Shown here one piece after another: positions 10,472 through 50,545 of a stretch of 64,000 nucleotides of DNA. Position numbers and translations under genes: made by a program. The DNA lies in contig JAFWFN010000019.1 of NCBI GenBank assembly GCA_017515565.1, positions 17,785-81,784 of the forward strand. The letters run 5' to 3'. Source of the DNA: Halomonas sp. Lineage in GTDB: Bacteria > Pseudomonadota > Gammaproteobacteria > Pseudomonadales > Halomonadaceae. Each line of letters opens with the position of its first letter. Positions within the stretch are counted from its first letter, which is position 1. Below the pieces are notes generated by a model. The model had not been told where the DNA came from. It worked only from the letters and a program-made list of their open reading frames with translations, and did not search any database.

Positions 10472-10503
10472 AAAAAAGCCGCGCGCCTAAGGCACGCGGT
10501 TTG
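10470..10503 (-). terminator. Rho-independent terminator of the nrdJ operon (possibly bidirectional)
   Basis: Minus strand ACCGCGTGCC-TTA-GGCGCGCGGC followed by a T8 run. Confidence 0.8.
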
Positions 10504-10534
10504 TTAGTTGCCTATTTTTAATTACCCACCTTTG

Positions 10535-11317: not shown

Positions 11318-11374
11318 ATCGTTCTCCACTTAGCAAAGGTGTGCGTGGTTTAGTCAGTAAGATGCTGCCCGCAC

Positions 11375-13486
11375 TTACCATTTGCCGTAGGTGCCCTCTT
11401 TCAAGCCATCAAACAGGTTAGCGGCATTATGCTCTTCACCGTCGTAAATCACGGTTTCATCGCCGGTAAGCTCTAGGGTTTCGCCATTTTCCAGTTCAAA
11501 CACATAGGTGGTGTTTTTAAGGTCGTCTTCGCGTACCAGCACACCTTGGAAGGCTTCAGGGTTAAAACGGAAAGTGGTGCAGCCTTTTAAGCGGCTTTCG
11601 TAGGCTTGCAGGTAGAGGTTCTGGAATTTTTCAAACGCAAAATCGGTAGGCACGTTCACCGTTTTAGAAATGGCCGAATCAATCCACTGCTGAGCGGCTG
11701 CCTGCACGGCCACGTGCTGCTCCGGCGACACCGAATCAGCGGTAATAAAGTAGTCAGGTAGATCGCTCTCTACCGCCTCGGCGGCAATAAAGTGGCGGTA
11801 GGCCGCCAGCTCAAACGACACCACTTCAACCTGCTCTTTGGTCTTTTTGCCCGACTGAATAATGTTGCGGAAGTAGCGGTGCGAGAACGACGGCTCAATA
11901 CCGTTAGAGGCATTGTTACCCATGGAAAGCGAAATAGTCCCCGTCGGTGCAATCGAGCTGTGGTGGGTAAACCGCGCACCATGTTCGGCCAGTGCCGCCA
12001 CCAGCTCAGGCTCTAGCTCAGCGACTTTCGCCATATATTGGCTGTAGCGGGCATGTAGAATACGCCCTGGTACCTTGTCGCCCACTTCGTAACCATCGCT
12101 TGCAAGCTGGGGGCGCTCGCGCATCATCTTCGGCGTAATGGTGTGCTCTTGCTCTAACACCGGCGCCATACCTTTCTCTTTGGAAAGCTCTAACGCTTGC
12201 TTCCAACCCTCCAAGGCAAGGTGACGGCTGACCTCTTCAGTGAAGGCTAGCGACGCGTTTGAGCCATAGGGGATTTTGAGCATCGTCATCGTTGACCCCA
12301 GCCCTAAAAAGCCCATCCCGTGGCGACGCTTAGCTTCAATTTCACGCTGCTGCTGGGGAAGTGGCAGGCCAGCGATCTCCACGACGTTATCCAGCATGCG
12401 GGTAAAGATAGCCACCACTTTACGGTAGCGCTCCCAATCAAAACGCGGCTTATCGCTGAACGGTTCGATAACAAACTGAGTGAGGTTGATAGACCCCAAC
12501 AGGCAGGCGCCTTCCGGCGGTAGCGGCTGTTCACCACAGGGGTTTGTGGCGCGGATATCTTCGCAGAACCAGTTGTTGTTCATGCGATTAACCTGATCAA
12601 TCAGGATAAAGCCCGGCTCGGCGTAGTCGTAGGTTGAAGACATGATCGTGTCCCACAGCTCGCGGGCTTTGATCACTTCAACAATGCGGCAGGCCACACG
12701 GCCTTGCTCATCCACCGTATAGCCCTCTTCGATAACGGGCCAGTCGCGGTAGATCAGATCCTTGGCCTTAACGTCCTCTTTTTCACCGGGATGGAGCGGA
12801 AACGCCAGCGGCCAGTCGGCGTTGTTTTTCACCGCTTCCATAAACTCATCAGTGATTAACAGGCTAAGGTTGAACTGACGCAGGCGGCCCGCTTCCCGCT
12901 TGGCCTGGATAAACTCACGCACATCCGGATGACCGACATCGAAGGTACCCATCTGCGCACCACGGCGCCCACCGGCGGAGGCGACGGTGAAGCACATTTT
13001 GTCGTAGATATCCATGAACGCCAGCGGGCCGTTGGTACCGGCGCCTGCGCCAAATACGAAGGCGCCCTTATGGCGCAGCGTCGAAAAGTCGTAACCAATG
13101 CCAGCGCCAGACTTCAGCGTCATGCCCGCATCCACCACGGAATCCAGGATATCGCGCATGGAGTCGCGAATGGTGCGCGATACCGTGCAGTTAATCAGGC
13201 TCACCGCTGGCTTGTAGGCTTCGGCACCAGCGTTAGACAAAATCCGTCCGGCGGGAATAGCGCCGTTTTCCAGCGCCCAGCGAAATTTCGGCAGCCACTC
13301 GTTCGCTTTATCGCCCTCCACCGCCGCTAGCGCCCGCGCGACCCGCTCAAAGGTAGCACCTACATCCTGGTCAACAGAGCGACTATGACGATCTTTAAGG
13401 CGATACTTAGCGTCCCAGATCTCCCGCGAGGGTGCCTGCATCGGAACATCATTAGAGGTCTTCATAGCTTTAGCAGCGGTGCTCAT
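11375..13486 (-). CDS. nrdJa: Adenosylcobalamin-dependent class II ribonucleotide reductase, large subunit
   Basis: PAGRILSNAG, SLINCTVS, ATNPCGEQPL (radical Cys), ACLLGSINL, SIAPTGTIS, SAISKTVN, LKGCTTFR. Start taken at ATG 13486 (AGGAG RBS). Confidence 0.95.
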   Translation of the reverse strand: MSTAAKAMKTSNDVPMQAPSREIWDAKYRLKDRHSRSVDQDVGATFERVARALAAVEGDKANEWLPKFRWALENGAIPAGRILSNAGAEAYKPAVSLINCTVSRTIRDSMRDILDSVVDAGMTLKSGAGIGYDFSTLRHKGAFVFGAGAGTNGPLAFMDIYDKMCFTVASAGGRRGAQMGTFDVGHPDVREFIQAKREAGRLRQFNLSLLITDEFMEAVKNNADWPLAFPLHPGEKEDVKAKDLIYRDWPVIEEGYTVDEQGRVACRIVEVIKARELWDTIMSSTYDYAEPGFILIDQVNRMNNNWFCEDIRATNPCGEQPLPPEGACLLGSINLTQFVIEPFSDKPRFDWERYRKVVAIFTRMLDNVVEIAGLPLPQQQREIEAKRRHGMGFLGLGSTMTMLKIPYGSNASLAFTEEVSRHLALEGWKQALELSKEKGMAPVLEQEHTITPKMMRERPQLASDGYEVGDKVPGRILHARYSQYMAKVAELEPELVAALAEHGARFTHHSSIAPTGTISLSMGNNASNGIEPSFSHRYFRNIIQSGKKTKEQVEVVSFELAAYRHFIAAEAVESDLPDYFITADSVSPEQHVAVQAAAQQWIDSAISKTVNVPTDFAFEKFQNLYLQAYESRLKGCTTFRFNPEAFQGVLVREDDLKNTTYVFELENGETLELTGDETVIYDGEEHNAANLFDGLKEGTYGKW

Positions 13487-13692: not shown

Positions 13693-14271
13693 ATGCAAAC
13701 GTACACCTCTTTCCCAACGCTTGTGATTAGCACCATGGCGAGCGCCACCCTTTGGGTTGCCGCGCCCTTCGCCGCAGCGGCTACGTTTAACATTGAGCAG
13801 CCCGACACCCATGGCCATTGGCAGTCGATGGTGCTTGCCCTGGGTGACGAACGCCACGTGCGCGCAGTGGAAACCCACAGCTACTCAGATGCGACCTTAA
13901 GCCTCAACGCGACCCAGGGCGTTTGTGATCTACCTTGGCTGGAAATGCGCGTTACCCTTGAGCAGCAACAGGGGGAAAGCAAAGCGGTCAATCTCGTACC
14001 GGCTAGGCTGCGTATTGATGAGCAGCCCATCGTGGATACCATGGCGGAATTTATTACCGAGCGCGGCGACGATGGCTTTTACGCACACTTCTATCTCAGC
14101 GAAATGCCTGCATTAATAGACGACATGCGCCAGGGCGAGCAGCTATTTATCGGCTTTGACCAAGAAGCGAGCGCACCGTGGTATATGACGTTTAGCCTGG
14201 AAGGTGCTGATAGCGCCATTGGGCGCATGCAATCGCTGTGCGATGCCTTCTTATCTACTGATGCCCCCTAG
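13693..14271 (+). CDS. Secreted hypothetical protein
   Basis: 192-aa ORF; signal-peptide-like N-terminus ending AAAA; C-terminal FSLEGADSAI..LC reminiscent of IalB/VasI-like proteins. Confidence 0.7.
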   Translation: MQTYTSFPTLVISTMASATLWVAAPFAAAATFNIEQPDTHGHWQSMVLALGDERHVRAVETHSYSDATLSLNATQGVCDLPWLEMRVTLEQQQGESKAVNLVPARLRIDEQPIVDTMAEFITERGDDGFYAHFYLSEMPALIDDMRQGEQLFIGFDQEASAPWYMTFSLEGADSAIGRMQSLCDAFLSTDAP

Positions 14272-17010
14272 CTTATCGGCATGAATACACGCCTCGTCTT
14301 GTAGCCGTAAATGTTCGATGGGCTGGGGCCGCGAGAAGAAGTAGCCCTGGAAGGAGAGACACCCCTGGGCATAGAGCCAGTCACGGTGCGCTTGAGTCTC
14401 AACTCCCTCTGCAATGACCTCCAGCTCCAAGCTGTGAGCCAGCGCAATGACGGTTCGTACAATCGCGGCGTCGGCGGGGTCATCCAACACATCGCGAACA
14501 AACGACTGGTCAATTTTAAGCTGGTCCAGGGGGAGCTGCTTGAGGTAGGCCAGCGATGAATAGCCGGTGCCGAAATCATCCAGTGAGAAGCGAATCCCCA
14601 GCTGCCGCAGAGCCTCCATGCGGCAACGCACTTCGGCAATGTCCTCCATGAGCAGTGACTCGGTCACTTCAAGCTTTAGCCGCTGCGGATTGGCCCCGGT
14701 ACGTGCTAAGACTGCTTTTATTTGTTCAACAAAACCTTCTTGTCGGAACTGGTTAGGGCTAACGTTAACCGCAGCACACAGCGCTGAGGTATGCGGCTGC
14801 TGCGACCAGACCACTAGCTGCTGACAAGCCGTTTCCAGCACCCACTCACCAATTATCCCAATGAGGTGCGTTTCCTCCGCTAGCGGAATAAAGACGCCCG
14901 GTGACACAATACCGCGCCTGGGATGCACCCAGCGCACGAGCGCCTCAACGCCCACGACCTGGCCACGCTCATCCACCTGGGTTTGGTAGTAGAGCGAGAG
15001 CTGCTGTCGTTCTATCACGTGCCGTAGGTCAGATTCTAGCTGGGCACGCTCCATCACTGCGGCTTGCATGGAGGGGTCAAAAAAGCACAGCGCATTGCGC
15101 CCAGAGGCTTTGGCCTGGTACATCGCCAAATCTGCCTGCTGTAAAATTTCGCTTACGCCTACCGCCTCCCCCGCAAATAGCGTAACGCCAATACTGCCAG
15201 AGACCTGGAGTGGGTGGTCATCAATGACCAACGGTTCTCTGAGTGCGGTCAGCAGCTTATAAGCAACACCTTCTGCATGCTGCGCAGCCACCGCGATATC
15301 GTCCCCCAGCTCATGAAGCATAACGACAAATTCGTCGCCTCCCAAGCGGGCGGCGGTATCACTGTCACGCACAATACCCGCGAGCCGTTTGGCAACGGAT
15401 ACCAGTAACGCATCGCCTAGGTAGTGGCCCAGGCTGTCGTTAATGGTTTTGAAGTTGTCCAGGTCAATAAACATCACCGCGCTGTAGTGACTCTCCTGCC
15501 GTGTCTCCCGCTGCCGGGCCTCAATGCGGTCAATTAAAAGGCGACGGTTGGGAAGCCCGGTAAGGGCATCAAAAAACGCTAGCTGATGAATTTCCTGTTC
15601 AGCGGCTTTGCGCTGGGTGATATCACTCAAAGTAGCTACATAGTGGGTAACGGCGCCGCTATCATTGCAAACAACGCTAATGGTCAACCATTGGGGATAA
15701 ACTTCACCATTTTTACGCCGATTCCACACCTCACCTTGCCAGCGACCCTGCTCACTGAGGGATAGCCACATCTGTCGATAAAACGCGGCATCATGGCGGC
15801 CAGAATTCAGCATCGCCGGTGTAAGGCCCACCACTTCTTTTTCGTCGTAGCCGGTGATCTCACTAAAGGTGTGGTTAACCTGCACAATGCGGTTATCCGC
15901 ATCTGCAATAAACATGCCCAGGTGCGTTTCAAACGCCATTGCAGCAATTTTTAGCTGCGCGGCTTCAAGCTCAGTGGCTTGCTGCGCTTTTTTTCGGGCT
16001 GCCACCTCCTGAGTAAGCTGTTGGCGGTGTTCACGCAGGCCTTTTTCCGCCGCATAAAGGCGCCGGTAGTGGTGAAAGGCCGTCGCTCCCAGTGCTGCTA
16101 ATAGCCCCACTACCACCAAGATAATCCAAAACCGCCGCCACCAGTCGTTCAAATAAAAGGTGGTGTCTTCTCCACTGATGACTAGCCAGGGGGCATCACT
16201 CAATCGCCGCGCGCTAAACAGCCGCTGCGTATCATCGACTGGCGAAACGCGCTCCCACGTGGCCGCCAGTTGTTCACTTGCTAAAAAATGCGCCAGTTCG
16301 GGGGTACTGACCTCGCGGCCCAGCAAGGAGGGCGCTTCCTCGCCCCCCTGAGAGCGTTGCATGATGACACGGGGCGTAGCATCTAACAGTGCTAGACTAG
16401 CGCCTTCGTTCAGGGTTAAACGTCCCATCAGCTGCACAAAATAAGCAGGATCTAACCGCGCAACGATATAGGCCTCCGGCTCCCCAACGCTGTTTTCTAC
16501 GCTTAGTAGGTGGAGCAGGCGAAGTCCATCCGCTCTCTCTGACCAGTAAAGGCGCGAGACGACATCGCGGCGGGCACTTTGCCTGGCTAACCCAGACAAA
16601 ACCTCCTGTACGCCAACATCAAACCGCGTACTCTGAAGCGGTAGTGTTGATGCCAGTACATTGCCTTGCGGATCAAGCAGGCCAACTTCATCCCAAAGTG
16701 CGACTTGGTCGCGTTGCTGCAACAAATAGTGCGTCAGCACAGTCGTATCAATACGCTCGTCATGGGTGAGTTGATAGAGCGCCTCAACGCTCTCAAGGGC
16801 ATGACGTGAGGTCTCGAGGGCGCTTCCTAACCACTCCGCCACTACATCAGCACTAGCACCTGTACGCGACTGCGCCGAGGTTTGCTGGTTGAGATAGTAG
16901 GTGCGCATCTCCCACACCACCAGCATGATGATACTTGCCAGTAATAGGCTGCCAAAGAGCCCTACCCATCTAGGGGAGAGGTAGCGCCACTTCTCACTCC
17001 AATACCTCAA
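14251..17010 (-). CDS. Membrane Cache-like sensor-PAS-GGDEF-EAL protein
   Basis: Two TM segments flank a periplasmic region; PAS/PAC; RLGGDEF with RDSD I-site; EAL, DDFGTGYSSL, EGVE, QGY. TTG start overlaps the upstream stop (TTGA). Confidence 0.95.
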   Translation of the reverse strand: MRYWSEKWRYLSPRWVGLFGSLLLASIIMLVVWEMRTYYLNQQTSAQSRTGASADVVAEWLGSALETSRHALESVEALYQLTHDERIDTTVLTHYLLQQRDQVALWDEVGLLDPQGNVLASTLPLQSTRFDVGVQEVLSGLARQSARRDVVSRLYWSERADGLRLLHLLSVENSVGEPEAYIVARLDPAYFVQLMGRLTLNEGASLALLDATPRVIMQRSQGGEEAPSLLGREVSTPELAHFLASEQLAATWERVSPVDDTQRLFSARRLSDAPWLVISGEDTTFYLNDWWRRFWIILVVVGLLAALGATAFHHYRRLYAAEKGLREHRQQLTQEVAARKKAQQATELEAAQLKIAAMAFETHLGMFIADADNRIVQVNHTFSEITGYDEKEVVGLTPAMLNSGRHDAAFYRQMWLSLSEQGRWQGEVWNRRKNGEVYPQWLTISVVCNDSGAVTHYVATLSDITQRKAAEQEIHQLAFFDALTGLPNRRLLIDRIEARQRETRQESHYSAVMFIDLDNFKTINDSLGHYLGDALLVSVAKRLAGIVRDSDTAARLGGDEFVVMLHELGDDIAVAAQHAEGVAYKLLTALREPLVIDDHPLQVSGSIGVTLFAGEAVGVSEILQQADLAMYQAKASGRNALCFFDPSMQAAVMERAQLESDLRHVIERQQLSLYYQTQVDERGQVVGVEALVRWVHPRRGIVSPGVFIPLAEETHLIGIIGEWVLETACQQLVVWSQQPHTSALCAAVNVSPNQFRQEGFVEQIKAVLARTGANPQRLKLEVTESLLMEDIAEVRCRMEALRQLGIRFSLDDFGTGYSSLAYLKQLPLDQLKIDQSFVRDVLDDPADAAIVRTVIALAHSLELEVIAEGVETQAHRDWLYAQGCLSFQGYFFSRPQPIEHLRLQDEACIHADKLGGISR

Positions 17011-19010
17011 GATGGCTCCTTAATGGCGACTTCAACACGGTTGCGCCCACTGCGTTTTGCCTGGTACATCGCCATATCAGCGCGGGCGACTAACGTTTTG
17101 CAGCTGTCTCCGGGCCGCCATGCCGCGACCCCAACGCTGACGGTAATCGGCTGTGGTAATTTATTTACCTCCTGCGAGGCAACAAGGTGGCGCAGCCGCT
17201 CCGCCAGCCCAGCTGCCGCCTCTATATCGGAGTGAGTCGCTAGCACCACAAACTCTTCTCCGCCCCAGCGGCCAAGATGGTCACAACCGCGTAGAGAGCT
17301 TTCCACCAAGCGCGCTAGCGATACCAACACGTCGTCACCCAAGCTATGTCCGTAGCCATCGTTGATCTGCTTAAAGTGGTCGACATCGAACAGCAACACT
17401 GCAAAGACTGCGCCATAGCGTTTAGCTGCCACCAGCTCAGCGTCGATGGCTTGCTCAATGCGGTAGCGGTTCCACACCTGGGTAAGCGGGTCGAAATGCG
17501 CCAGCTGCTCTAAGCGCTGATTTGCTTCCGCCAGCGCTTTGCGCTCGCACTCTAGGTACATATTGAGCGTGCTGATTTCGTACGCTGAAATCGCCAACGT
17601 TAGGTCTTCCCCCAAGTCCACCGCCGCTAGGCGCTCGACCCGCTGCCACGACTCGCTTTTACCCACCACTTCTTCATGCCATGCCGCCGGGGGGGTGGCC
17701 ATGACGGCTTCCTGTGGGAAGGCTTTAGGCTGCATCGCCCAATAGAAGCTTTCTACCTGTTCAGGGCGGAAAAATAGCAGCCAGCCGCGCTGGGCGGGGT
17801 TCACGGGCAGGGGTACCGCTAGCACACCACACTGCTCGGGCATGGCTAGCGATGAGGTTAACGGCTCCTTAGAGATATCCCGGGTACACCACGGCCCGCT
17901 GTGTACATGGGCTTTATCCAAGCGCCTAGCCAACTGGCTAATCGCCTCTGGGGCAGGCGTATTACCAGACTGAAAAACGCTGCCCTTCGCCCATAGTGCC
18001 ACGCCGTGGGAACGAAACAGTGCCATCCAGGTATCTGCCTGTTCAGCTAAAAGTTGCTGGGGGCTTTGCGGCTCTACGCGTGCTTTGGTTGAAAGCGCCA
18101 GGCTATCCTGCACACGCTGTAGATAGCGCGCTTCTTGACGTGCCCGCAGCAGCAGCAGGCGCTGAGTCGCCATTTGCACCAGCATGCGCACTGCGTCACG
18201 CACCGGAGGAGCCACCGGATGTGGTTTCGCCGAATAACAAAACAGCAGCCCCCAAAGGCCAGTATCGCTCTGCATAGCAACGCTTAACGCCCCGCGAACG
18301 CCAAGACGGTGCAGATAGCGTTGACGCTCTGGAGCAGGGGCACGCAGAAAACTATCGTTAAGTGCCACAGGGCAGTCACGGGGGACTAAGTGTTCACTAG
18401 GCGCTGCCACATCCTCAATTAAGCGCACCGGGTGGCGCTCGTAGGCGAGGCGTAAGGAAAGGGGGAAATCGCTGGCGGGAAAACGCTGGCCTAGCAGTGT
18501 CGGCAAGCCGCTGCCGCATGCTTCGGCGACGATCAGCCCGTGCCAGTCGCTATCAAAGTGGCAGATCGACACGCGATCGTGACCGGTCAGCTCTTGAACA
18601 GCCCGCACCAGGTAGTCAAGCAACTCCTCTTGATGACTCGCTTCCGTCAGCCGCAGCAGGCGCTCATTCACCGTTCCTAACAAGCGCCGTTTCCCAATCG
18701 GTGTTAGTGGTTCAATTTCCACCACAACGTAGGCGCCTGAACGGTAGGCATACAGCTGAAAGCGCGTTGGGCTCGCCGGGCGGGTAAAGGTTAGCGGCCC
18801 GGCCAAGCGCTGCTGGCCCTGTAGCTCGTGGCGAAGCCGTTGGCTTAGGCGTTTACCAAGCACTCCCGACAGCATCTGATCACGCCCGTCGGTAACGGTC
18901 GTGCCAACAAGTGCGGCAAAGTTGCTACTGAAAGCTTGAATGCGCCGACTGTCAGCATCCAACACCAGTAAAGCGCCAAACGACTGAAGTAAAGGGTGTT
19001 GCTTCGGCAC
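17007..19010 (-). CDS. Bacteriophytochrome-fold (PAS2-GAF-PHY) diguanylate cyclase with degenerate chromophore pocket
   Basis: LQSFGALLVLD, LTGHDRV, RFPASDFP, LWGLL, FFRPE..FYWA match the BphP photosensory core; C-terminal DPLTQVWNR...RGCD..GRWGGEEF. Confidence 0.92.
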   Translation of the reverse strand: MPKQHPLLQSFGALLVLDADSRRIQAFSSNFAALVGTTVTDGRDQMLSGVLGKRLSQRLRHELQGQQRLAGPLTFTRPASPTRFQLYAYRSGAYVVVEIEPLTPIGKRRLLGTVNERLLRLTEASHQEELLDYLVRAVQELTGHDRVSICHFDSDWHGLIVAEACGSGLPTLLGQRFPASDFPLSLRLAYERHPVRLIEDVAAPSEHLVPRDCPVALNDSFLRAPAPERQRYLHRLGVRGALSVAMQSDTGLWGLLFCYSAKPHPVAPPVRDAVRMLVQMATQRLLLLRARQEARYLQRVQDSLALSTKARVEPQSPQQLLAEQADTWMALFRSHGVALWAKGSVFQSGNTPAPEAISQLARRLDKAHVHSGPWCTRDISKEPLTSSLAMPEQCGVLAVPLPVNPAQRGWLLFFRPEQVESFYWAMQPKAFPQEAVMATPPAAWHEEVVGKSESWQRVERLAAVDLGEDLTLAISAYEISTLNMYLECERKALAEANQRLEQLAHFDPLTQVWNRYRIEQAIDAELVAAKRYGAVFAVLLFDVDHFKQINDGYGHSLGDDVLVSLARLVESSLRGCDHLGRWGGEEFVVLATHSDIEAAAGLAERLRHLVASQEVNKLPQPITVSVGVAAWRPGDSCKTLVARADMAMYQAKRSGRNRVEVAIKEPS

Positions 19011-19030: not shown

Positions 19031-19705
19031 CTATTCACCCTTGACCTGCTGCTTTAGCAACAGCTCAACGCGCCGATTGGCTGCTCGCCCTTCTGCGGTC
19101 GCGTTACTTTCCATGGGTTGGGTGTCGGCATATCCGACCGCCCGCATTCGTGAAACAGCGACTCCCTGGCGCTCAAGGTGGCGCACAACCGCAATCGCGC
19201 GACCTACCGAGAGCTCCCAATTCGACGGGAACCGAGGAGTAGCAATGGGTATATTATCGGTATGCCCTTCTACCGAAATTTGACCTTCAAAGGCCTCAAG
19301 CGCCGTTATCAGGTTTTCTAACACATCCTGTCCTTGGGCCGTTAGCACTGCATCGCCACTGGGAAACAACAGGCTATCGTCGATACGCAGGGTAAGGCCT
19401 TCACGGCCCTGGGAAACACTGACCCCGGGAATATTTAGCCCTGCCATCTGCGGCCTTAGCCCCTGGTGACGAGGCTGAATACCGGTGGCTAAGGTTGCCA
19501 GGGGCAGTGAAGTAATCGCACTGGCCGAGCGCATTCTGTCGCTATCAAATGCCTCCCCCCCTCCTGGTGGCGTTAATGCCAGCAGGAGGACAAAGAGGGT
19601 GATTAACAGCGTCAAAACGTCCAAGTAGCTCGTTAACCAGCTCTCATCACCCTCGCCTGCCGCAGGGGGAAGTTCCAGCGCATGACGGGCTTCGCTATCC
19701 AGCAT
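19031..19705 (-). CDS. Second stator B subunit (MotB/PomB/MotS family, OmpA-like domain)
   Basis: WLTSYLDVLTLLITLFVLLL TM segment with the essential Asp; VEGHTDNIPI...SNWELSVGRA...NRRVE. Confidence 0.9.
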   Translation of the reverse strand: MLDSEARHALELPPAAGEGDESWLTSYLDVLTLLITLFVLLLALTPPGGGEAFDSDRMRSASAITSLPLATLATGIQPRHQGLRPQMAGLNIPGVSVSQGREGLTLRIDDSLLFPSGDAVLTAQGQDVLENLITALEAFEGQISVEGHTDNIPIATPRFPSNWELSVGRAIAVVRHLERQGVAVSRMRAVGYADTQPMESNATAEGRAANRRVELLLKQQVKGE

Positions 19706-19709
19706 GGCG

Positions 19710-20528
19710 CTACCCTTTTGTCGCGGAGCTAGGCGTGGCGCGTGGCTTTACAGTGGCATCGCGTATTTCGTCGTGGTAGTTGGCAACAAAGGAGTTGAGT
19801 GTTTCTTCAATAAACGACGGCAAGCGACGTTTGGTGATCAGCGATATACCTTCAAGCACCATATTCATGGTGATGAGGCGCTCTTCGGTACGACGCTCAA
19901 GCTTAACGGCGATAGGCTTAAACACTAGGTTGGCGAGCAAGATACCGTAAAACGTGGTGAGCAAGGCAACGGCCATGCGCGGGCCAATGACCTCCAGGTC
20001 ACCCGCATCCATTACCTCAAGCATATTGACCAACCCCACCAAGGTGCCAATCATGCCAAAGGCAGGCGCATAGGTTGCCATTGTGCGGAAAATTTGTGCC
20101 TCCGCATGCTCGCGCGCTTTTAACCGTGCTATGCGCCAGCGCAGCATGTCGAAGATTTCATCCTCTTTGGTATTGGCAATCACCAGTTGAATGCCCGTGC
20201 GTAGAAACGGGTTACGGGTGTGCTCAAGCTCTTTTTCCACCGCCCGAACATCGCCTTTAAACCATAGCCGGGACATCGACACGAGTTCGTTAATGTCATC
20301 TCGAACATAGGTGTTTTCACGGCGAAACACTAAGCCTACCAAGCGCACTACCCGAAGCACTTCTTTCAGCGGGTAACTGATAAACGTAGCGGCCAGCGTG
20401 CCGGTGATGACAATCGCTAACCCAGGTAAATTAAGAAAGCTTTCTGGGGACTCTGCGGTAAAAAACAGCACGCTTACCAGCAGTAGAATGCTGGCAGATA
20501 TACCGATCAGCGTAGATGGGTTCATCAA
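19710..20528 (-). CDS. Second stator A subunit (PomA/MotP-like)
   Basis: APAFGMIGTLVGLVNML and IGPRMAVALLTTFYG closely follow PomA/MotP; four TM segments. Confidence 0.9.
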   Translation of the reverse strand: MMNPSTLIGISASILLLVSVLFFTAESPESFLNLPGLAIVITGTLAATFISYPLKEVLRVVRLVGLVFRRENTYVRDDINELVSMSRLWFKGDVRAVEKELEHTRNPFLRTGIQLVIANTKEDEIFDMLRWRIARLKAREHAEAQIFRTMATYAPAFGMIGTLVGLVNMLEVMDAGDLEVIGPRMAVALLTTFYGILLANLVFKPIAVKLERRTEERLITMNMVLEGISLITKRRLPSFIEETLNSFVANYHDEIRDATVKPRATPSSATKG

Positions 20529-20564: not shown

Positions 20565-21263
20565 TTAATTGGCATCGTGCAAACGGGCGCGTAAACGGCT
20601 AACGGCCTGACTATGCAGTTGGGAGACACGGGACTCGGTAACCCCCAGCACAGCGCCCACCTCTTTTAAGTTCATCTCTTCTTGGTAGTACAGCGCCATT
20701 AACAGCTTTTCTCGCTCTGGCAGCGCCTCAATCGCTTCAATCAAGGTTTGACGTTGTTGGGCGTCCAACAACTGGTCGAAGAGCAAATTGCCAGCGCCGC
20801 TACTAGGCTCACCGCCCTCTGTCACCAGTTCTTCAAACGGCAGCAGTTGGCCGCTGTTGGTGTCATTGAGTAGCTGCTGATAGTCGCTGAGCGGCATCTC
20901 TAAATCACGCGCGATTTCCCCCTCTTCGGGAGCGCGACCTAGCTGTTGCTCCAGCCGCCGCACCGTCTCATCCATCGCCCTGGCCGAACGCCGCACGCTA
21001 CGGGGTAGCCAGTCGCGCGTGCGTAGCTCATCCATCATGGCGCCACGAATTCGCTGGCTGGCAAAGGTGGCAAATGTCGCGCCTTGGGCCGCATCAAAGC
21101 GCCCAAGGGCTTCTAATAACCCCACCATGCCCGCCTGGATAAGATCATCTAGCTCGATGCTCGCGGGCAACCTCACCTGCAGCGTTAAGGCCTGACGTCT
21201 CACCAGTGGCATGTATTGGGTTAACAGCTCACTCTGTTTGATCCTGCCTTGTGCTGTATACAT
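20565..21263 (-). CDS. fliA: Flagellar sigma factor sigma28
   Basis: DDLIQAGMVGLLEA, RIRGAMMDELRTRDWLPRSVR, LGVTESRVSQLHSQA. Confidence 0.98.
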   Translation of the reverse strand: MYTAQGRIKQSELLTQYMPLVRRQALTLQVRLPASIELDDLIQAGMVGLLEALGRFDAAQGATFATFASQRIRGAMMDELRTRDWLPRSVRRSARAMDETVRRLEQQLGRAPEEGEIARDLEMPLSDYQQLLNDTNSGQLLPFEELVTEGGEPSSGAGNLLFDQLLDAQQRQTLIEAIEALPEREKLLMALYYQEEMNLKEVGAVLGVTESRVSQLHSQAVSRLRARLHDAN

Positions 21264-21808: not shown

Positions 21809-22375
21809 TTACCGGGCAAGCAACAGCAGTTCTGTGTCTAAATAACCTGCGGCAGCTTCTCGCAAGTTATCGAGTAATCCTTGGCGTGGCAAGTGGGGCT
21901 CATGCAGCGCCAAAAGGCGCTTTGGGCCTTTGTTGTCATGCACTTGTCGCAAAACTCGGTACATCGGCATAAACGCATCCGCATCGCTACTTACCCACAA
22001 CGCCCACCGCGGGTAACGCGCCACCAGTAATGGCAGATTGGCTGTAGCAGGGTCAACTAGGTGAATGTCCCAGCCATCTGGGTCGCCTGCCCAGCGGCGC
22101 CCCAACGCCGACCATTGGCTGAGGCGACTTCTTACCTTGTTAACCTGGTGCTGATGGGTGGATAAGCCCACCACCACCAGCGGCTGTTTCGGCGTGGGGG
22201 GTGCCTCTACTGTCGGCACCATGGCGGATGCAGCATAAACGGAAGCCGCTTCCTTTGAGACGGGCTCTGCGGGGACTGGCTCATCCGGCAGAGTATCTTC
22301 GGGCATTTCTCCGCGCTGCTGACGCTGTAAATCCGCCCATTTACGCAGCCCCGCTGCCTGGTCTTGGCTGCTCAT
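21809..22375 (-). CDS. FlhG/FleN-related protein lacking the ATPase P-loop
   Basis: N-terminal DQAAGLR motif; sits directly after flhF (ATGA overlap); no KGGVGKT; C-terminal half weakly resembles FlhG. Confidence 0.65.
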   Translation of the reverse strand: MSSQDQAAGLRKWADLQRQQRGEMPEDTLPDEPVPAEPVSKEAASVYAASAMVPTVEAPPTPKQPLVVVGLSTHQHQVNKVRSRLSQWSALGRRWAGDPDGWDIHLVDPATANLPLLVARYPRWALWVSSDADAFMPMYRVLRQVHDNKGPKRLLALHEPHLPRQGLLDNLREAAAGYLDTELLLLAR

Positions 22376-24546
22376 ACCATGCCCTCTCGGCTCACGCTAC
22401 CTAGCTGACGAATAGCATCGCGGGCCATAAAGGCATGCACTAATCCGTCAAGTAAGGCGGTATCGCGCCGTTTTCGCTGGGTGCCTAGCAGCAGCATCAG
22501 GTCGGTACGCAGAGCAAGAGCAGCGTCATCGTCGGCACTGTCCAAATGCCCTGCTACGGCGGCAGCGCCGCTGGCCATGAGCAGGCGTATTTCAGCACTG
22601 ACATCGCCACTGTCGGCTTCTTTAAGCTGCTGCCATGCCCGCTTGGTCAGCGCGGTGACCCCTTCGCTTTGCAGTTGGGTAGCCAGTAAAGAGAGTGCAT
22701 CAGCGCCTAATCGAGCAGGGCTTAACCAGTAGCGCCGTGCAATACGCTTAGCGCTTTCGGGGTCACGAATCTCTCCGTACCACGCCAGTAGAGCATTGCC
22801 TGACGCGTCGGTCACTTCTGCGTAGGCACTCCACAACTGCATAGGCTGCCCACGAAAACGCACGCTTATATGGTGCGTAAGCGTGCTATCAATAAATAAC
22901 TGGCGCTGGGCACAACGCGCGCCCTGGAAGTATACCCGCTGACTGGCAGGCACCAAGCTGACCCAGGTCAGGTGTTGGGCTTCCAACCATGCCAGCGCTT
23001 CGGTGTCGGGGAGTGCAGGCAGCAAATGGACGGCGATGCCGTGTGCATCACTTTGTGTTGCCAAGCGAGGCTGCCAACCGGCGGGCTGGCGATGCTGCAG
23101 GCAGGGTAGCGCCGACCATGCCCCGTTAGCATCTAGCCCAATATCTGGCATTGACCAGTCACAGCCACGCTCATTGCGGCGGGGGGACCATGCCATCCCT
23201 AGGAGGTTATCTGCCGGGGGCGTGTCAGCGAGTAAACGATCAAGCCGCCCATCCTGCACTGCGCTTGGCAGAGCGGCGATATCCCATACGGCCTCTAAGC
23301 GGGCAAAACCCGCCACTCGCTGACGCAGGCGCGTCAATACCGATGAGAGACGACGCCCTTGGCCAAGCACATCCCGAGACCAGCGGGGCAGACTTACCGG
23401 CGCGGAAGCAGGCTGGCTGGCTAACGTGGATTGGCTGTCCAGCGCCTGATCGATAAGCGCCGCGGGGTTCGCCACGGCCATATCTTCGGGCACTTGCTGA
23501 CCGTGGGAGCCAAACAGCACACGCATCCCATGGCGCATGACAATATCAAGCACCGGCGCTAAGCGTCCGGCTTCGTCCTGCTTGGTGATAATACAGTCAT
23601 CTAGCTCGGCGCCCGCCGCACGGGCGGCTTGCCGATAGCGTAGTACGACTTCTTCGAGCGTTTCCGGCTGGCTGGCAGCGTTTAATAGCAGTACTAACCG
23701 CACGGTCGATTGCCCCCCCTGCAGGTGAGCGATTTGCTCAATAACCCGCTGGTCACGCTGGCTCATGCCGACCGTATCAATGATTACCCACTGTTTACCC
23801 TGTAGCCGACCTAGCAGATCATCAATGGGCTGCTCCGCATCGAGGGCATACATCGGCGTATCGAGCAGACGCGCATATATCCGCAGTTGCTCGTGGGCGC
23901 CGATACGGAAGCTATCGGTGGTGACAAGCGCCACCGGCCGCGTACCGTGGCGCATCACAAAACGTGCCGCGAGCTTAGCGGTGGTGGTGGTTTTACCTAC
24001 GCCCGTTGGGCCCACCAGCGCGACAATGCCCGTTTGGTCAAAAAAGCTGTTTTCCTGGTTAAGCACCGGTAAGCGCGCCATCAGCTGTTCGCGCAGCCAT
24101 ACAAGCGGCTGGTCACTGTCGGCAGAGGCTAGTACCAGTGAGTCCGGCAGCCCCGCCAGCACTTCGCTGCTTAACTCATCGCTAAAACCAACGCGCGCTA
24201 GCAGTTGGCGCAGCCGCGTGGGCGTATCCGCCGCTGCAGCAGCGGCAGGTGCTTGCTGTTGGCGGGTCAGCAGCTCACGCATATCCTGCATTTCACGCAG
24301 CAAACGCTCGCTCATGGCCTGAAGGGGGTCGGAGGCAGGCAGCGAGAAAGCGGGGGGAGAGGCGGGAGGCGGCTCTGGCGTGGGGGCTGGGTCAAAATGA
24401 TCGACCGCTTCATCCGCCATCGCCAGAATCTCAACGCCGCCCTCGGTACGCCGGTTAGCAAGAATCAAGGCGTCATCGCCCAATGCCTCGCGTACTTGGC
24501 GCATCACATCACGGCTATTTGCTCCGACAAAACGTCTAACACTCAT
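22372..24546 (-). CDS. flhF: SRP-type GTPase FlhF with long C-terminal extension
   Basis: MSVRRFVGANSRDVMRQVREALGDDALIL; G1 GPTGVGKTTT; TDSFRIGAHEQL; DTVG; TKQDE; GQQVPED; then ~350 extra residues. Confidence 0.93.
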   Translation of the reverse strand: MSVRRFVGANSRDVMRQVREALGDDALILANRRTEGGVEILAMADEAVDHFDPAPTPEPPPASPPAFSLPASDPLQAMSERLLREMQDMRELLTRQQQAPAAAAAADTPTRLRQLLARVGFSDELSSEVLAGLPDSLVLASADSDQPLVWLREQLMARLPVLNQENSFFDQTGIVALVGPTGVGKTTTTAKLAARFVMRHGTRPVALVTTDSFRIGAHEQLRIYARLLDTPMYALDAEQPIDDLLGRLQGKQWVIIDTVGMSQRDQRVIEQIAHLQGGQSTVRLVLLLNAASQPETLEEVVLRYRQAARAAGAELDDCIITKQDEAGRLAPVLDIVMRHGMRVLFGSHGQQVPEDMAVANPAALIDQALDSQSTLASQPASAPVSLPRWSRDVLGQGRRLSSVLTRLRQRVAGFARLEAVWDIAALPSAVQDGRLDRLLADTPPADNLLGMAWSPRRNERGCDWSMPDIGLDANGAWSALPCLQHRQPAGWQPRLATQSDAHGIAVHLLPALPDTEALAWLEAQHLTWVSLVPASQRVYFQGARCAQRQLFIDSTLTHHISVRFRGQPMQLWSAYAEVTDASGNALLAWYGEIRDPESAKRIARRYWLSPARLGADALSLLATQLQSEGVTALTKRAWQQLKEADSGDVSAEIRLLMASGAAAVAGHLDSADDDAALALRTDLMLLLGTQRKRRDTALLDGLVHAFMARDAIRQLGSVSREGMV

Positions 24547-39194: not shown

Positions 39195-40112
39195 TCATTC
39201 GGCTACGTCGGCCTGTGGCATGTCTGGTAGTAAAGCCTCTTCGGGCGAATCGCCCTCAGGTAACAGCACATCAGCGCCAAGAATACCTGGGTCGCGAATT
39301 GTCTCAGCAATTTCGGGTAACAGTACTAAAAGCTCAATACGCCGATTAATAGGGTCTGAGGGGGCAGTGTCAGGCAGCAACACCCTATCGGCAAAGCCCG
39401 ATACCCGCAGTAATTGACCTGGGTCAAGCCCACCGACCACCAACTCCCGACGCGAAGCATTGGCGCGGTCACTGGATAGCTCCCAATTACTGTAACCTCG
39501 ATAGCCACCCGCATAGGGCACGCTGTCGGTATGACCGCTGATGCTTAGGTCATTGGGCAATTCATTGAGTAATGGCGCGATAGTGCGTAGAAGGTTACGC
39601 ATATAAGGTGCCACCTGATCACTACCTAGTTGAAACATTGGCCGCTGCTCTGTATCGAGCAGTTGAATGCGCAGCCCTTCACGGGTAAGGTCAAAACGCA
39701 TTTGGTTGCGCAACTGGCGCAGCTCCGGGTCTAGCTCAATGGCTCGCTCTATACGTTCTTGTAAATCAGAGAAAAAACGCCTCTCTTGCAAGCTGGGCCG
39801 CGGCTGTAGAGACAAATCTACCCGGGCGCGCTCACCATCGCTATGGGCTGGATCAGGCCCGCCACCGGGAATCACCCGCGTACTACCACCCCGGTCGCCG
39901 GTCATCGCGGTTATCAGCGGTGTACTAAAGTACTCGGCAACACCGCGCCGCGTTTCATCACTGGAGACGCTTAAAATCCACATCACCAGGAACAGGGCCA
40001 TTAGCGCGGTCATAAAATCAGCCAAGGCGATTTTCCATGCTCCCCCATGATGAGCATGAACCACTTTTTTGCGCCGAATGACTATCGGGCGCTTGTCACC
40101 GCCCTTACTCAT
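39195..40112 (-). CDS. motB: Flagellar stator MotB (enteric H+-type)
   Basis: HHGGAWKIALADFMTALMALFLVMWIL; SGHTD, NWELSSDRA, NRRI. Confidence 0.97.
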   Translation of the reverse strand: MSKGGDKRPIVIRRKKVVHAHHGGAWKIALADFMTALMALFLVMWILSVSSDETRRGVAEYFSTPLITAMTGDRGGSTRVIPGGGPDPAHSDGERARVDLSLQPRPSLQERRFFSDLQERIERAIELDPELRQLRNQMRFDLTREGLRIQLLDTEQRPMFQLGSDQVAPYMRNLLRTIAPLLNELPNDLSISGHTDSVPYAGGYRGYSNWELSSDRANASRRELVVGGLDPGQLLRVSGFADRVLLPDTAPSDPINRRIELLVLLPEIAETIRDPGILGADVLLPEGDSPEEALLPDMPQADVAE

Positions 40113-40978
40113 GCATTACCGCCCTTCTTGGCGTCGCGCACGTACTCTTCAAGTTCTGAGAAACTAGGACGTTCGGTGCTGTGCAGTGCCTTACGACCGA
40201 ACTCAACGGCTAACTGAGGTGCATAACCATGCAGACTCGCTAGCAGCGTGACACGGATACACTGCAGCATTTTTTCCGCTTCTTTTGCCTGCCGATCTGC
40301 GTAGCTAGCAATTGGGCTGATAAAGCCGTAACCCATCAAAATCCCTAGGAAGGTGCCCACTAGCGCCATCGCAATCATTTGACCCATTTGGTCAGGGCTA
40401 GCATCTGCATAGGTCAGTGCTTTAATTACCCCCATTACCGCAGCCACAATGCCAAACGCAGGCATGGCATCACCTACTTTAGCAATCGCATCAATGGGAA
40501 TATGGGCTTCTTGCTCAAATACTTCGATTTCGTGAAGCATCAGTTCGTCGATTTCCATCGGCTCCATGCCGCCGCTTACCATTAGGCGCAGGTAATCGGT
40601 TAAAAAATCCATAATGTGCGGGTCCGCAAGTACCGTGGGATGTTCTTGAAACAGCGGGCTTTCCTGAGGGTTATCGATATCGCGCTCAATCCCCAGCATC
40701 CCCTCACGGCGCACTTTGGAGAGAATTTTGTACTGCAGCGCCATTAGCTCCATGTATAGGGCTTTGTTATATTTTTTGGTCCGTTTGAGCCGCGGCAGTA
40801 TTTTAAACGTGGCTTTAATCGCTTTACCGTTATTGGCGGCAATAAACGCGCCTACGCCCGCACCGCCAATAATTAACAGCTCTAAAGGTTGATACAGGGG
40901 GCCTAAACTACCACCTGCCAGCACATAGCCGCCAAATACACACAATATTACGACCACATAACCTAGGAGAATCAGCAC
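40109..40978 (-). CDS. motA: Flagellar stator MotA (enteric H+-type)
   Basis: QPLELLIIGGAG, DAMPAFGIVAAVMG, ALVGTFLGIL..YG, AVEFGRK. Confidence 0.97.
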   Translation of the reverse strand: MLILLGYVVVILCVFGGYVLAGGSLGPLYQPLELLIIGGAGVGAFIAANNGKAIKATFKILPRLKRTKKYNKALYMELMALQYKILSKVRREGMLGIERDIDNPQESPLFQEHPTVLADPHIMDFLTDYLRLMVSGGMEPMEIDELMLHEIEVFEQEAHIPIDAIAKVGDAMPAFGIVAAVMGVIKALTYADASPDQMGQMIAMALVGTFLGILMGYGFISPIASYADRQAKEAEKMLQCIRVTLLASLHGYAPQLAVEFGRKALHSTERPSFSELEEYVRDAKKGGNA

Positions 40979-47787: not shown

Positions 47788-49545
47788 ATGAGCGAAACTG
47801 GTGCTACGGCAGGCCGTCAGAACAGTACGACCCAAAACGTCCCCCGCAGTGGAACGGCAGAGAGTGAGACTAAAAGCACGCCGACGGTTGAACGCATGCT
47901 GAAACAGCTGCGAGGCAACCCACTGGTAGTGTTATTGGTCGCTGCTGCTGCGTCTATTGCTGTTGTCGCGGCGCTCTTCATGTGGGCCAGCAGCCCTGAA
48001 TACCGCGTGCTCTACAGCAACCTCAGTGAAGCCGACGGCGGACGCATCATCGCCGAACTCGATAGCCGAGGCGTTCCCTATCAGTTTAGCGAAGGCGGCC
48101 AAGCGCTATTAGTGCCTGGCAATAATGTTCACACGCTTAGGCTTCAGCTTGCTGAGCAAGGCCTGCCTCGCGGCGGCAACCTTGGCCTGGAGCTTATGGA
48201 TAACCAAGCCTTCGGTATTAGTCAGTTTGCTGAGCAGGTCAATTTCCAGCGCGGCTTAGAAGGTGAGTTAGCCCGTTCCATTGAGTCGCTTGGCCCAGTG
48301 GAAAGGGTGCGGGTTCACCTTTCCATGGCCAAGCCGTCGGTCTTTATACGCGACCGCGAGCCTGCCAAGGCATCCATTGTTCTGACCCTACTACCCGGCC
48401 GAGTTTTAGGTGAAGGCCAAGTCAGCGCTATTGTGCACATGGTCTCCAGCAGCGTACCTGAACTGTCCACCGAGGACGTCACGGTAGTCGATCAAAACGG
48501 TCGCCTACTGACCGCCAACGCCTCTCAGGGGAATGACCTTGATGGTTCCCAGCTGGCTTATATCACCGAAGTAGAGCGCTCCTACCAGCGCCGTATCGAG
48601 AATATTCTTTCGCCTATTTTGGGCAGTGAAAACGTGCGCGCCCAGGTCGCTGCACAAATCGATTTTTCACGCCGCGAAGAAACCTCTGAGCGCTACGGCC
48701 CTAACCAGGCGCCCAATGAGTCGGCCGTGCGCAGCCGTCAGCTAAGCCTTTCTTACGATGGCGAAGACCCATTAGCAACGGGAATACCTGGCGCGCTTAG
48801 CAACACCCCGCCCGGCGTGGCACCTGCCCCTATCAATCAGCCAGACGCTGAGGAGGGTGAGAATGACCTGCCGGCCAATGCGCTACGCAACCTACGCCAA
48901 GACGACGTCGTTAATTACGAAGTTGATCGTAGCATTGAGCATATTCAGCATCGCCTGGGGCAGGTTCAGCGCCTCTCGGCAGCGGTTGTCGTAAATTTCC
49001 GCCGCGCCATCAATGATGAGGGCGAGGTAGAACAAGTCGCTTTAAGCCCTGAAGAAGTTGCTCAGCTAGAGCGCCTCGTTCAACAAGCTATGGGCTTCTC
49101 ACTGGACAGAGGCGACCAAGTCGAAGTCGTTAACACCCCCTTTGCCAGCACCGACGAGGCGACGGATGAGGCCGATTGGTGGCGGCAACCCGAGATACTC
49201 TCGCTTGCCTCTACGCTGGGGCGCTACTTACTCGTGGCACTTGCTGCACTACTGCTTTATCTGCTGATACTCCGCCCGCTGATCAAACGCTATACGCAGA
49301 CACCCGTCATGGCAGCCGCTATGCCTGGCACTGGCAGTACCTTTAGCGTCAGCGTCGGTGACGAAAAGGATGATGAAGAGGATGAGTCGTCTTCAGAGGG
49401 CGGTGATACCTATAGCGATAAACCTAAACGTCGCCGTAAAACGTCGCTGTACGAACACAATCTTAACGACCTGCGGGAAATGGCCCAGGAAGACCCCCGC
49501 ATGGTCGCAATGATTATCCGTAGTTGGATGAATGCCAATGAGTAG
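47788..49545 (+). CDS. fliF: MS-ring protein FliF
   Basis: LYSNLSEADGG.I, FGISQF.EQVNFQRGLEGEL.RSI, NYEVDR.I. Confidence 0.98.
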   Translation: MSETGATAGRQNSTTQNVPRSGTAESETKSTPTVERMLKQLRGNPLVVLLVAAAASIAVVAALFMWASSPEYRVLYSNLSEADGGRIIAELDSRGVPYQFSEGGQALLVPGNNVHTLRLQLAEQGLPRGGNLGLELMDNQAFGISQFAEQVNFQRGLEGELARSIESLGPVERVRVHLSMAKPSVFIRDREPAKASIVLTLLPGRVLGEGQVSAIVHMVSSSVPELSTEDVTVVDQNGRLLTANASQGNDLDGSQLAYITEVERSYQRRIENILSPILGSENVRAQVAAQIDFSRREETSERYGPNQAPNESAVRSRQLSLSYDGEDPLATGIPGALSNTPPGVAPAPINQPDAEEGENDLPANALRNLRQDDVVNYEVDRSIEHIQHRLGQVQRLSAAVVVNFRRAINDEGEVEQVALSPEEVAQLERLVQQAMGFSLDRGDQVEVVNTPFASTDEATDEADWWRQPEILSLASTLGRYLLVALAALLLYLLILRPLIKRYTQTPVMAAAMPGTGSTFSVSVGDEKDDEEDESSSEGGDTYSDKPKRRRKTSLYEHNLNDLREMAQEDPRMVAMIIRSWMNANE

Positions 49546-50545
49546 CTCTATTGCCGAAATGAGCGGGGCGCGTAAAAGCGCTATCCTGCTACTTGCCCTT
49601 GACGAAGACAGCGCTGCAGAAGTGTTTAAGTTCCTGAGCGCCACCGAGGTGCAAGATATCAGTACGGAAATGGCGCGCTTGCACCAAGTCTCCCACGAGG
49701 ACATGAAGGCTGTTCTGGAAGCGTTTCACAATGAGTCCGAAGAGTTCGTGGCGCTTAACCTCAACTCCAGCGAGCATATTCGCTCAGTACTTACCAAGGC
49801 TCTTGGCAGTGAGCGCGCCACTAGCCTTATCGAGGATATCCTTGAAACCACGGGGGGCAACTCGGGCATCGATGCACTGAACCTTATGGAAGCTTCCATG
49901 GTGTCAGAGCTTATCCGCGATGAGCACCCGCAGATTATTGCCACCATCCTGGTTCATTTAGACCGCCATCAGGCTGCCGATATTCTGGAACTGTTTGAAG
50001 AGAAACTGCGCAACGATGTGGTTCTGCGTATTGCCACCTTTAGCGGCGTTCAGCCAGCGGCACTCCAAGAGCTGACCGAGGTACTCACCAGTATGCTGGA
50101 TGGACAAAACCTCAAACGCAGCAAAATGGGCGGCGTAAGAACAGCAGCCGAAATTTTGAATTTGATGAACTCTTCACAAGAAGAAGTCGCCATCGAAACC
50201 GTTCGCTCGCACAGCGAAGACCTTGCACAGAAAATTATCGACGAAATGTTCCTATTCGAGAACCTACTCGACCTGGACAACCGTGCAATTCAAATGGTGC
50301 TGCAAGAAGTCGAAACCAACTCCCTGGTGGTGGCCCTCAAGGGCGCCCAGGATGCGCTGGTCGACAAGTTCCTGCGCAATATGTCGCAACGAGCTGCAGA
50401 TTTGGTACGCGAAGATATGGAAGCTCGCGGCCCCATCCGGGTTTCCCAGGTAGAGACGGAGCAAAAAGCCATTCTACAGGTGGTTCGTCGTTTAGCGGAT
50501 TCTGGTGAGGTCGTCTTGTCAGGTGGAGATGATGAGTATGTCTAA
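49538..50545 (+). CDS. fliG: Switch protein FliG
   Basis: KSAILLLALDED.AAEVFK, EHPQIIATIL, MGGVRTAAEILN, MFLFENL, NMSQRAA. Confidence 0.98.
   Translation: MSSSIAEMSGARKSAILLLALDEDSAAEVFKFLSATEVQDISTEMARLHQVSHEDMKAVLEAFHNESEEFVALNLNSSEHIRSVLTKALGSERATSLIEDILETTGGNSGIDALNLMEASMVSELIRDEHPQIIATILVHLDRHQAADILELFEEKLRNDVVLRIATFSGVQPAALQELTEVLTSMLDGQNLKRSKMGGVRTAAEILNLMNSSQEEVAIETVRSHSEDLAQKIIDEMFLFENLLDLDNRAIQMVLQEVETNSLVVALKGAQDALVDKFLRNMSQRAADLVREDMEARGPIRVSQVETEQKAILQVVRRLADSGEVVLSGGDDEYV

Follow-up and report, generated by a model that had tools for sequence, protein, structure and literature searches.

A candidate sodium-type stator pair beside fliA in Halomonas: pore, lineage and rotor

Can one bacterial flagellar motor draw on two ion gradients, and do its stator genes record this? 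The question is raised by a 64,000-nucleotide stretch of a Halomonas sp. genome (assembly GCA_017515565.1, contig JAFWFN010000019.1, positions 17,785 to 81,784 of the forward strand), hereafter the window. Besides an E. coli-type motAB, the window carries a second pair of stator genes at positions 19,031-20,528. The initial annotation assigned Na+-type signatures to this second pair and H+-type signatures to motAB, and proposed that a single enteric-type motor can use both. The analysis described here indicates that the second pair is very probably a real, if non-canonical, flagellar stator, with a pore that appears Na+-like by the best current structural criteria. Coupling of this pair to Na+ is the reading that we favour, with some reserve, and a mixed-fuel motor in this bacterium is likely on sequence grounds. 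No paper on Halomonadaceae stators was found in the literature searched.

The ion pathway of the second pair

Both genes of the second pair are intact. The A subunit belongs to Pfam family PF01618 (MotA_ExbB), with four transmembrane (TM) helices and the complete cytoplasmic domain, as in PomA/MotP-like flagellar stators of the TGI4 type. It aligns over its full length to V. alginolyticus PomA (residues 3-248), and also to residues 2-248 of Paenibacillus TCA20 MotA1. In the numbering of PomA, which is used for A subunits throughout (and that of PomB for B subunits), the TM3 and TM4 prolines P151 and P199 and the G154-G161 zipper are kept. The open reading frame (ORF) first listed for this gene, 19710-20528 on the minus strand, begins one codon earlier than the start adopted here, at TTG 20528; by comparison with orthologues, translation almost certainly begins at the ATG at 20525 (MNPSTLIG...). 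The B subunit carries a Pfam OmpA match (PF00691, 61 bits). Its Asp29, which corresponds to PomB D24, sits in SYLDVLTLL, and the single TM helix combined with an OmpA-like domain is the architecture of stator B subunits.

The motifs on which the two fuel assignments were originally based are all present. The A subunit contains APAFGMIGTLVGLVNML and MAVALLTTFYGILLANL (GMIGTLVG and LLTT), and the B subunit contains SYLDVLTLLITLFVLLLAL, with Leu eleven residues after the aspartate (Asp+11). The window motA reads PAFGIVAAVMGVI and MALVGTFLGI (GIVAAVMG and LVGT), and the window motB reads LADFMTALMALFLVMW, with Val at Asp+11. The Bacillus rule for Val or Leu at this B-subunit position has been recounted by Onoue et al. 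2019 and Islam et al. 2020. In PomA, a Na+ ion has been placed on T158, T185 and T186 (Hu et al. 2023), three threonines that Onoue et al. 2019 also give as Na+ site 2. Alignment to V. alginolyticus PomA (PDB 8BRI) confirms that the threonines of the second pair occupy exactly these three positions, as had been proposed.

The likeness extends along the whole ion pathway. The characterised references for this comparison were taken from PDB alignments and comprise V. alginolyticus PomA/PomB, B. subtilis and C. sporogenes MotA/MotB, and Paenibacillus TCA20 MotA1. The A subunit reads F88, K89, E96, P151, T158, M165, M179, T185, T186, I190, N194 and P199 at the PomA-numbered positions. At 17 ion-pathway positions it is identical to PomA in 16 (P151, A152, G154, M155, T158, L159, L162, M165, L166, M179, A182, L183, T185, T186, G189 and N194), the sole mismatch being A190, which is replaced by Ile. 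At the same positions, the H+-type MotA of B. subtilis matches PomA in 7 and the window's own MotA in 8. Overall identity of the A subunit to PomA is 31%, made up of 68% over residues 148-204 (TM3-TM4) and 20% elsewhere. This contrast is much sharper than in C. sporogenes MotA (47% against 29%) or B. subtilis MotA (37% against 30%), and it suggests that the pore has been selectively conserved relative to PomA.

The residues that line the size filter of Na+ stators tell a similar story. This filter, termed Cavity-I, is formed by PomA L162, M165, L166, M179 and L183 together with PomB L28, C31, F32 and L35; of these, M165, M179 and L35 are invariant among Na+ types and give way to Ala, Ile and Val among H+ types (Nishikino et al. 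2024). All five A-subunit residues are kept in the second pair. The B-subunit TM sequence, WLTSYLDVLTLLITLFVLLLAL, gives T27, L28, T31, L32, L35 and A38, so that L28 and L35 are kept, C31 becomes Thr and F32 becomes Leu. Cavity-I is thus identical at seven of nine positions; of the two changes, C31T is conservative and F32L is a real one. The C31T substitution in PomB is functional in Vibrio (Nishikino et al. 2024). At the bottleneck, S27 and C31 of PomB are both Thr here, which retains the hydroxyls in place of the hydroxyl and thiol found in the Na+ stator. Because the path is almost residue-for-residue that of Vibrio PomAB, in the T158/T185/T186 site as in the M165/M179/L35 filter, sodium-motive force would be the most likely fuel of the second pair.

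Lineage and flagellar linkage

The second pair belongs to a stator lineage that is conserved across Halomonadaceae. Within a family sample of 121 genomes, this type of pair occurs in 80, including all 11 of the genus of this strain, and many Vreelandella, Halomonas and Billgrantia species encode proteins with 86-96% identity to the A subunit. Of 89 Halomonadaceae loci, 79 share the TM3/TM4 pattern of this pair, and the remaining 10, from Chromohalobacter, have L179/S185; Leu at Asp+11 is invariant among the loci. The best NCBIfam models for the A subunit are MotP (NF005383, 180 bits against a cut-off of 394) and then PomA/MotA (PomA, NF006527, 159 against 341). For the B subunit the best model is MotD (NF006541, 171 against 283), and MotS (NF005382) scores 109 against 264. 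No NCBIfam equivalog cut-off is reached by either subunit, which places the pair outside the MotPS and PomAB subfamilies. Orthology to PomAB itself was rejected, as a further pair of this genome, on contig C34, is much closer (314 against 159 bits with the PomA model).

Beyond the family, an exhaustive profile-free search returned relatives at 40-57% identity, the nearest named ones being from Achromobacter. The lineage is also found in environmental Bordetella, Orrella, Guyparkeria and Halothiobacillus, with further members in Kangiellaceae, Pleionea, Pseudohongiella, Marinobacter and metagenome-assembled genomes (MAGs) of Ectothiorhodospiraceae. In these non-family relatives the B subunit typically reads S/T-Y-L-D; Thr158 and Thr186 are present in all and Thr185 in most. 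Halomonadaceae and Guyparkeria carry M165, L166 and B-subunit T31/L35, with M179 in Guyparkeria and in 79 of the 89 Halomonadaceae loci. Some 53 Alcaligenaceae loci read L165, M166 and L179 in the A subunit and A31, M32 or L32, V35 and A38 in the B subunit, the latter being the states of H+ MotB proteins. The Alcaligenaceae loci (L087-L146; Achromobacter, Bordetella, Orrella) lie outside flagellar clusters and keep T158/185/186, I190 and N194; positions 88/89 are Met-Asn in these orthologues, with both positive charges lost. The contrast between the two families fits one stator lineage that has been retuned between ions.

In several Halomonadaceae genera this stator type is present twice (loci L181-L196; genomes G015, G024, G035, G036, G041, G050, G063 and G089). 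One copy resembles that of the window, with a short B-subunit linker and T31, and the other has a long linker, SYID(I/V)MTLLVA and Ala31; fliA is not within 4 kb of either copy in these genomes. Two further loci, L160 and L162, come from MAGs labelled Lamprobacter and Halochromatium and have the order flhB-flhA-flhE-fliA-A-B, with an A subunit 88% identical to that of the window and with no FlhF or ORF188 match in the locus comparison. They look like Halomonadaceae-type contigs that reached Chromatiaceae bins through mis-binning or gene transfer.

A flagellar role of the second pair is indicated by its neighbours and by its distribution. Among the 80 closest loci, 79 have fliA no more than 3 kb upstream of the pair in the same orientation, at a gap of less than 100 bp in 50 of them, and the gene run flhA-flhF-ORF188-flhE-fliA-A-B is conserved. 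FliG is present in 79 of the 80 family genomes that carry the pair, and 10 of the 11 FliG-less genomes are without it; each of the 10 carriers tested outside the family has one FliG. Consistent with these linkages, the complete cytoplasmic domain, the OmpA-like domain and the Gly-rich linker are flagellar (FIT) and not generic (GIT) traits in the scheme of Puente-Lelievre et al. 2025.

Stator inventory and gene neighbourhood

The genome contains six genes of the MotA_ExbB family: TolQ, two ExbB-like genes, the two MotA-type genes of the window and one stator gene on contig C34 (Table 1). The E. coli-type motAB pair follows flhDC and precedes cheAW. Its MotA has the proton-type pore residues A158, A165, I179, G185, T186, I190 and Y194, and A165, I179 and V35 are common to the window MotA/MotB and to B. 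subtilis MotA/MotB. The TM helix of its MotB is ADFMTALMALFLV, and a Pfam MotB_plug match of 60 bits covers residues 15-65. The third pair, on contig C34, is isolated, flanked by an OsmC-like gene and an EamA-type transporter gene. Its A subunit is 50% identical to V. alginolyticus PomA, and its B subunit reads WMVTYADLMTLLLCFFVLLLSFAEIDAEKFRRVADELSKAFGVQ, with a TM helix and plug that are nearly those of PomB. Pairs of this PomAB-like type are present in just 5 of 11 sampled genomes of the genus.

A whole-genome search for the FliG_C domain gave one match (G000:C29:67982-68302, equivalent to window positions 50198-50518). One FliG implies one FlhDC-type flagellar system, in which three stator pairs face a single rotor. 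The proposal of one motor with H+ and Na+ stators is therefore upheld in its single FliG, its E. coli-type proton MotAB and its Na+-like second pore, but the stator pairs number three, not two. The initial annotation saw no motX/motY in the window, and a search for the MotY N-terminal domain (PF18393) gave no match anywhere in the genome; MotX was not searched for. The MotX/MotY T-ring is not required by the Na+-type stators of Bacillus or Clostridium.

Taken together, these features suggest a mechanism in which the second pair would act as an auxiliary stator, a 5:2 MotA/MotB-type ion-driven rotary unit. In this genus it would be transcribed with fliA and then with two enzymes of cyclic di-GMP (c-di-GMP) metabolism. 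Sodium-motive force would be converted into torque on the same single rotor that is served by the H+-type MotAB, and in this strain the PomAB-like pair of contig C34 would act on that rotor too. No terminator-like sites were found in the gaps between fliA, the A gene, the B gene and the next gene. That next gene, for a phytochrome-like GGDEF protein, is probably co-transcribed with the B subunit; this order is shared by 35 of the 80 closest loci. The synteny of the PAS-GGDEF-EAL gene beyond it is also seen in one related locus, L001. A strict sigma-28 consensus pattern had no match in the window, the pattern being so strict that this result is uninformative.

Table 1. Positions of the stator genes and of associated genes (window coordinates unless a contig is named)
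Feature	Coordinates	Strand	Remarks
A subunit, second stator	19710..20525	(-)	271 aa counted from ATG 20525; Pfam MotA_ExbB 93 bits
B subunit, second stator	19031..19705	(-)	224 aa; TM helix, disordered linker, OmpA-like peptidoglycan-binding domain
fliA (sigma-28)	20565..21263	(-)	NCBIfam FliA NF005413 307 bits against cut-off 201; 37 bp upstream of A subunit
Phytochrome-like GGDEF gene	17007..19010	(-)	ORF; starts 20 bp after B subunit
Sensor PAS-GGDEF-EAL gene	14251..17010	(-)	ORF; 4-bp overlap with phytochrome-like GGDEF gene
ORF188	21809..22375	(-)	188 aa; between flhF and flhE/fliA
flhF	22372..24546	(-)	724 aa
motA, E. coli type	40109..40978	(-)	TIGR03818 MotA1 374 bits against cut-off 304
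motB, E. coli type, with plug	39195..40112	(-)	NF006548 331 bits against cut-off 277
fliG	49532..50545	(+)	Single FliG of the genome
Third stator pair, canonical PomAB relative	Contig C34 (locus L084): A 1351-2139, B 499-1347	(-)	Outside the window

Two neighbours of fliA are unusual in their own right. ORF188 occupies the usual slot of FlhG/FleN. Comparison with Pfam, NCBIfam and PDB sequences gave no match, the ORF lacks a P-loop, and its counterparts in related loci are 41-70% identical. Its start, MSSQDQAAGLRKW, fits the DQAxxLR motif with which FlhG activates FlhF, and the ORF may be a remnant or minimal FlhG. In FlhF, the family models match residues 1-373 only, and about 350 C-terminal residues are without family assignment.

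Fuel, gating and role of the pair

Several observations weigh against Na+ coupling of the second pair. The H+-driven MotAB of R. sphaeroides is reported to retain all three threonines along with the entire A-subunit path, and to differ from PomAB only at B-subunit S27, L28 and C31 (Nishikino et al. 2024). With this precedent, a PomA-like A subunit is no proof of Na+ use. The H+ stators of C. jejuni and B. subtilis have Ala at 158 and 185 and Ile at 190, the Na+ state of position 190 being Ala or a polar residue (Hu et al. 2023); the second pair has Ile at 190, as do all 89 Halomonadaceae loci. In the genus of this strain, moreover, the B-subunit residue at Asp+14 is not Ser but Ala, the state of Bacillus MotB. 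The base rate of the threonines points the same way. Among the 130 nearest 50%-identity cluster representatives, about 105 (~80%) have Thr-Thr-Thr irrespective of habitat, including freshwater and soil Ferrovibrio and Achromobacter, so that the motif marks the PomA/MotP-like radiation as a whole and does not set this A subunit apart. Position 190 varies among the Thr-Thr-Thr representatives (V in 27, A in 26, L in 25, I in 19). Thr-Thr-Thr, I190 and N194 are also present in the A subunits of Achromobacter and Bordetella, which are not halophilic. As R. sphaeroides MotAB retains the threonines and they are the default in the neighbouring radiation, the two signatures first cited for Na+ use are not diagnostic. 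The Val/Leu position alone was also rejected as a habitat marker within the clade: some marine or halophilic members (Marinobacter, Ectothiorhodospiraceae, Kangiellaceae) carry Val35, and the contrast between Halomonadaceae and Alcaligenaceae is to that extent not clean evidence.

These points would be accommodated if the pair were an auxiliary flagellar stator driven by protons or by both ions, with threonines inherited within the lineage and without a part in ion selection; Pseudomonas MotCD or the PomA-like R. sphaeroides MotAB would then be its analogues. Such a stator would not be expected to have M165, M179 and B-subunit L35 in the state that Nishikino et al. 2024 find in Na+ types, nor Thr at B-subunit position 31, which is Ala in B. 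subtilis MotB, in E. coli-type MotB and in the Alcaligenaceae orthologues. A pore far better conserved to PomA than is the remainder of the A subunit also argues against it, as does the reported dependence of Chromohalobacter motility on a Na+ gradient in a genus without a PomAB-like pair. On this evidence, proton or dual-ion use appears unlikely, though it is to be taken seriously.

The Chromohalobacter observation bears directly on the preferred reading, Na+ coupling. Soft-agar motility of C. salexigens increased with salinity (Salvador et al. 2018, PMC6104435); the Na+ ionophore ETH2120 impaired it and a protonophore did not, and a mainly Na+-driven motor was suggested. The strain concerned, DSM 3043, is now filed under C. 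israelensis (NCBI taxonomy). In four Chromohalobacter genomes, C. israelensis among them, the inventory is limited to TolQ, ExbB, an E. coli-type MotA and the stator type described here, and no PomAB-like gene was found in the four. If Salvador et al. are correct, the second-pair type is the candidate Na+ stator in this genus. Three features temper this connection. The ionophore assay was called preliminary by its authors. The Chromohalobacter pair is not beside fliA, and it has a long Pro-rich linker together with L179 and S185. It also lies on a second sub-branch of the family clade, and both sub-branches coexist in some genera. With some genera two-copy and Chromohalobacter in the second branch, its pair may not be a strict orthologue of that of the window.

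The assignment of the pair as a flagellar stator is likewise opposed by features of both subunits. No plug helix was found in the B subunit by Pfam, by sequence conservation or in an AlphaFold (AF2) model. The protein has 224 residues, compared with 315 in PomB, and the residues after its TM helix, TPPGGGE, form no amphipathic plug. The Pfam MotB_plug match spans profile positions 9-39 of 58, which is the TM part, and the linker (residues 45-95) is the least conserved part and variable in length. The AF2 model, built on 19 orthologues, has a helix at residues 21-43 (predicted local distance difference test, pLDDT, ~93) and a folded domain at 95-218; residues 47-81 have a pLDDT below 50 and are without helix, although a monomer model such as this one is no proof of plug absence. 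In the A subunit, the canonical FliG-contact positions R88 and D114 are Phe and Ala, and rotor coupling would thus be non-canonical. The Halomonadaceae genome G011, rated 100% complete, is without FliG or FlhA and yet has an intact pair (locus L180, contig C11: A 9885-10754, B 10751-11569). Its A subunit is 77% identical with all pore residues kept, and the pair adjoins an NSS-family sodium symporter gene. Either the flagellum was lost recently in this genome or the pair has a role that does not depend on it.

One possibility raised by these features would be that the pair is not, or not only, a flagellar stator, but a 5:2 motor that energises another envelope process or a c-di-GMP-linked function. 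The fliA neighbourhood in this genus would then be secondary. The continuation of the window operon into two c-di-GMP enzymes is compatible with this, as is the location of the pair away from flagellar genes in Chromohalobacter, Achromobacter, Guyparkeria, Pleionea and others. Against it stand the near-complete co-occurrence with FliG inside and outside the family, the adjacency of fliA in almost all of the closest loci, and the FIT traits of both subunits. In addition, K89 and E96 are kept in the A subunit, which has an Arg at about position 93, and an Arg one helical turn along is common within the clade. A non-flagellar role is accordingly considered very unlikely. A further reading, which seems quite unlikely to us, is that the pair represents an uncharacterised plug-less stator lineage, marked by S-Y-L-D and the loss of R88, whose pore has been retuned between ions and which is newly gated or deployed, maybe with a flagellum-independent role, given the intact copy in G011. 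The Na+ state may then be that of Halomonadaceae and Guyparkeria and the H+ state that of Achromobacter and Bordetella, and deployment may proceed, for example, through the c-di-GMP enzymes of the operon.

Comparison with known stators places the preferred reading, an auxiliary Na+-type flagellar stator, in context. V. alginolyticus PomAB, a Na+ polar stator (PDB 8BRI, 8BRD, 8ZYV), is of the same 5:2 family; relative to it, the second pair keeps the B-subunit Asp24, and differs in having no plug helix, in the changes at PomA positions 88, 114 and 190, and in a genome without MotY. C. sporogenes MotAB (PDB 6YSF, 8UCS) shares T158, T185, T186, M165, M179 and N194 in the A subunit and T27, L28, T31 and L35 in the B subunit; unlike the second pair, it has Ser at 190 and canonical R88/R89, and its host is Gram-positive. 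P. aeruginosa MotC has Ala, not Thr, at 158 and 185, and the use of MotCD is tied to c-di-GMP. Like the second pair, MotCD is a second stator at the end of an flhF-fliA run, but the match of the B subunit to MotD concerns the C-terminal domain only and remains below the cut-off of 283. MotCD is described as H+-driven (PMC11633141).

The closest conceptual parallels are B. subtilis, with MotPS and MotAB, and S. oneidensis, with PomAB and MotAB, where one flagellar system runs on an H+ stator and a Na+-type stator (PMC5380961, PMC9039648). Unlike these, the present genome has three pairs, and its second pair falls in neither subfamily. As hybrid-fuel motors are already known, this would be a new case and not a new principle. 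What is distinctive is the apparently plug-less B subunit, the altered rotor-contact residues, the operon with c-di-GMP enzymes and the Halomonadaceae/Alcaligenaceae contrast. The suggested fit with a halo- and alkali-tolerant lifestyle holds in part: the host is halophilic, with an A subunit closest to the Vreelandella/Halomonas group, but close orthologues occur in non-halophilic Achromobacter and Bordetella, and the lineage is therefore no halophile speciality.

If the preferred reading is correct, the Halomonas and Vreelandella species used in biotechnology would draw on two ion gradients through as many as three interchangeable power units of one enteric-type motor, extending the hybrid-fuel principle of Shewanella and Bacillus. 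The lineage would also offer a natural experiment on ion selectivity, in that the threonines are shared and the Cavity-I and bottleneck residues, which recent cryo-electron microscopy work has proposed as the real determinants of selectivity, differ between halophiles and Alcaligenaceae. Finally, if a stator can function with no plug helix, this would be relevant to the question of how undocked units are kept from leaking ions before they join the motor.

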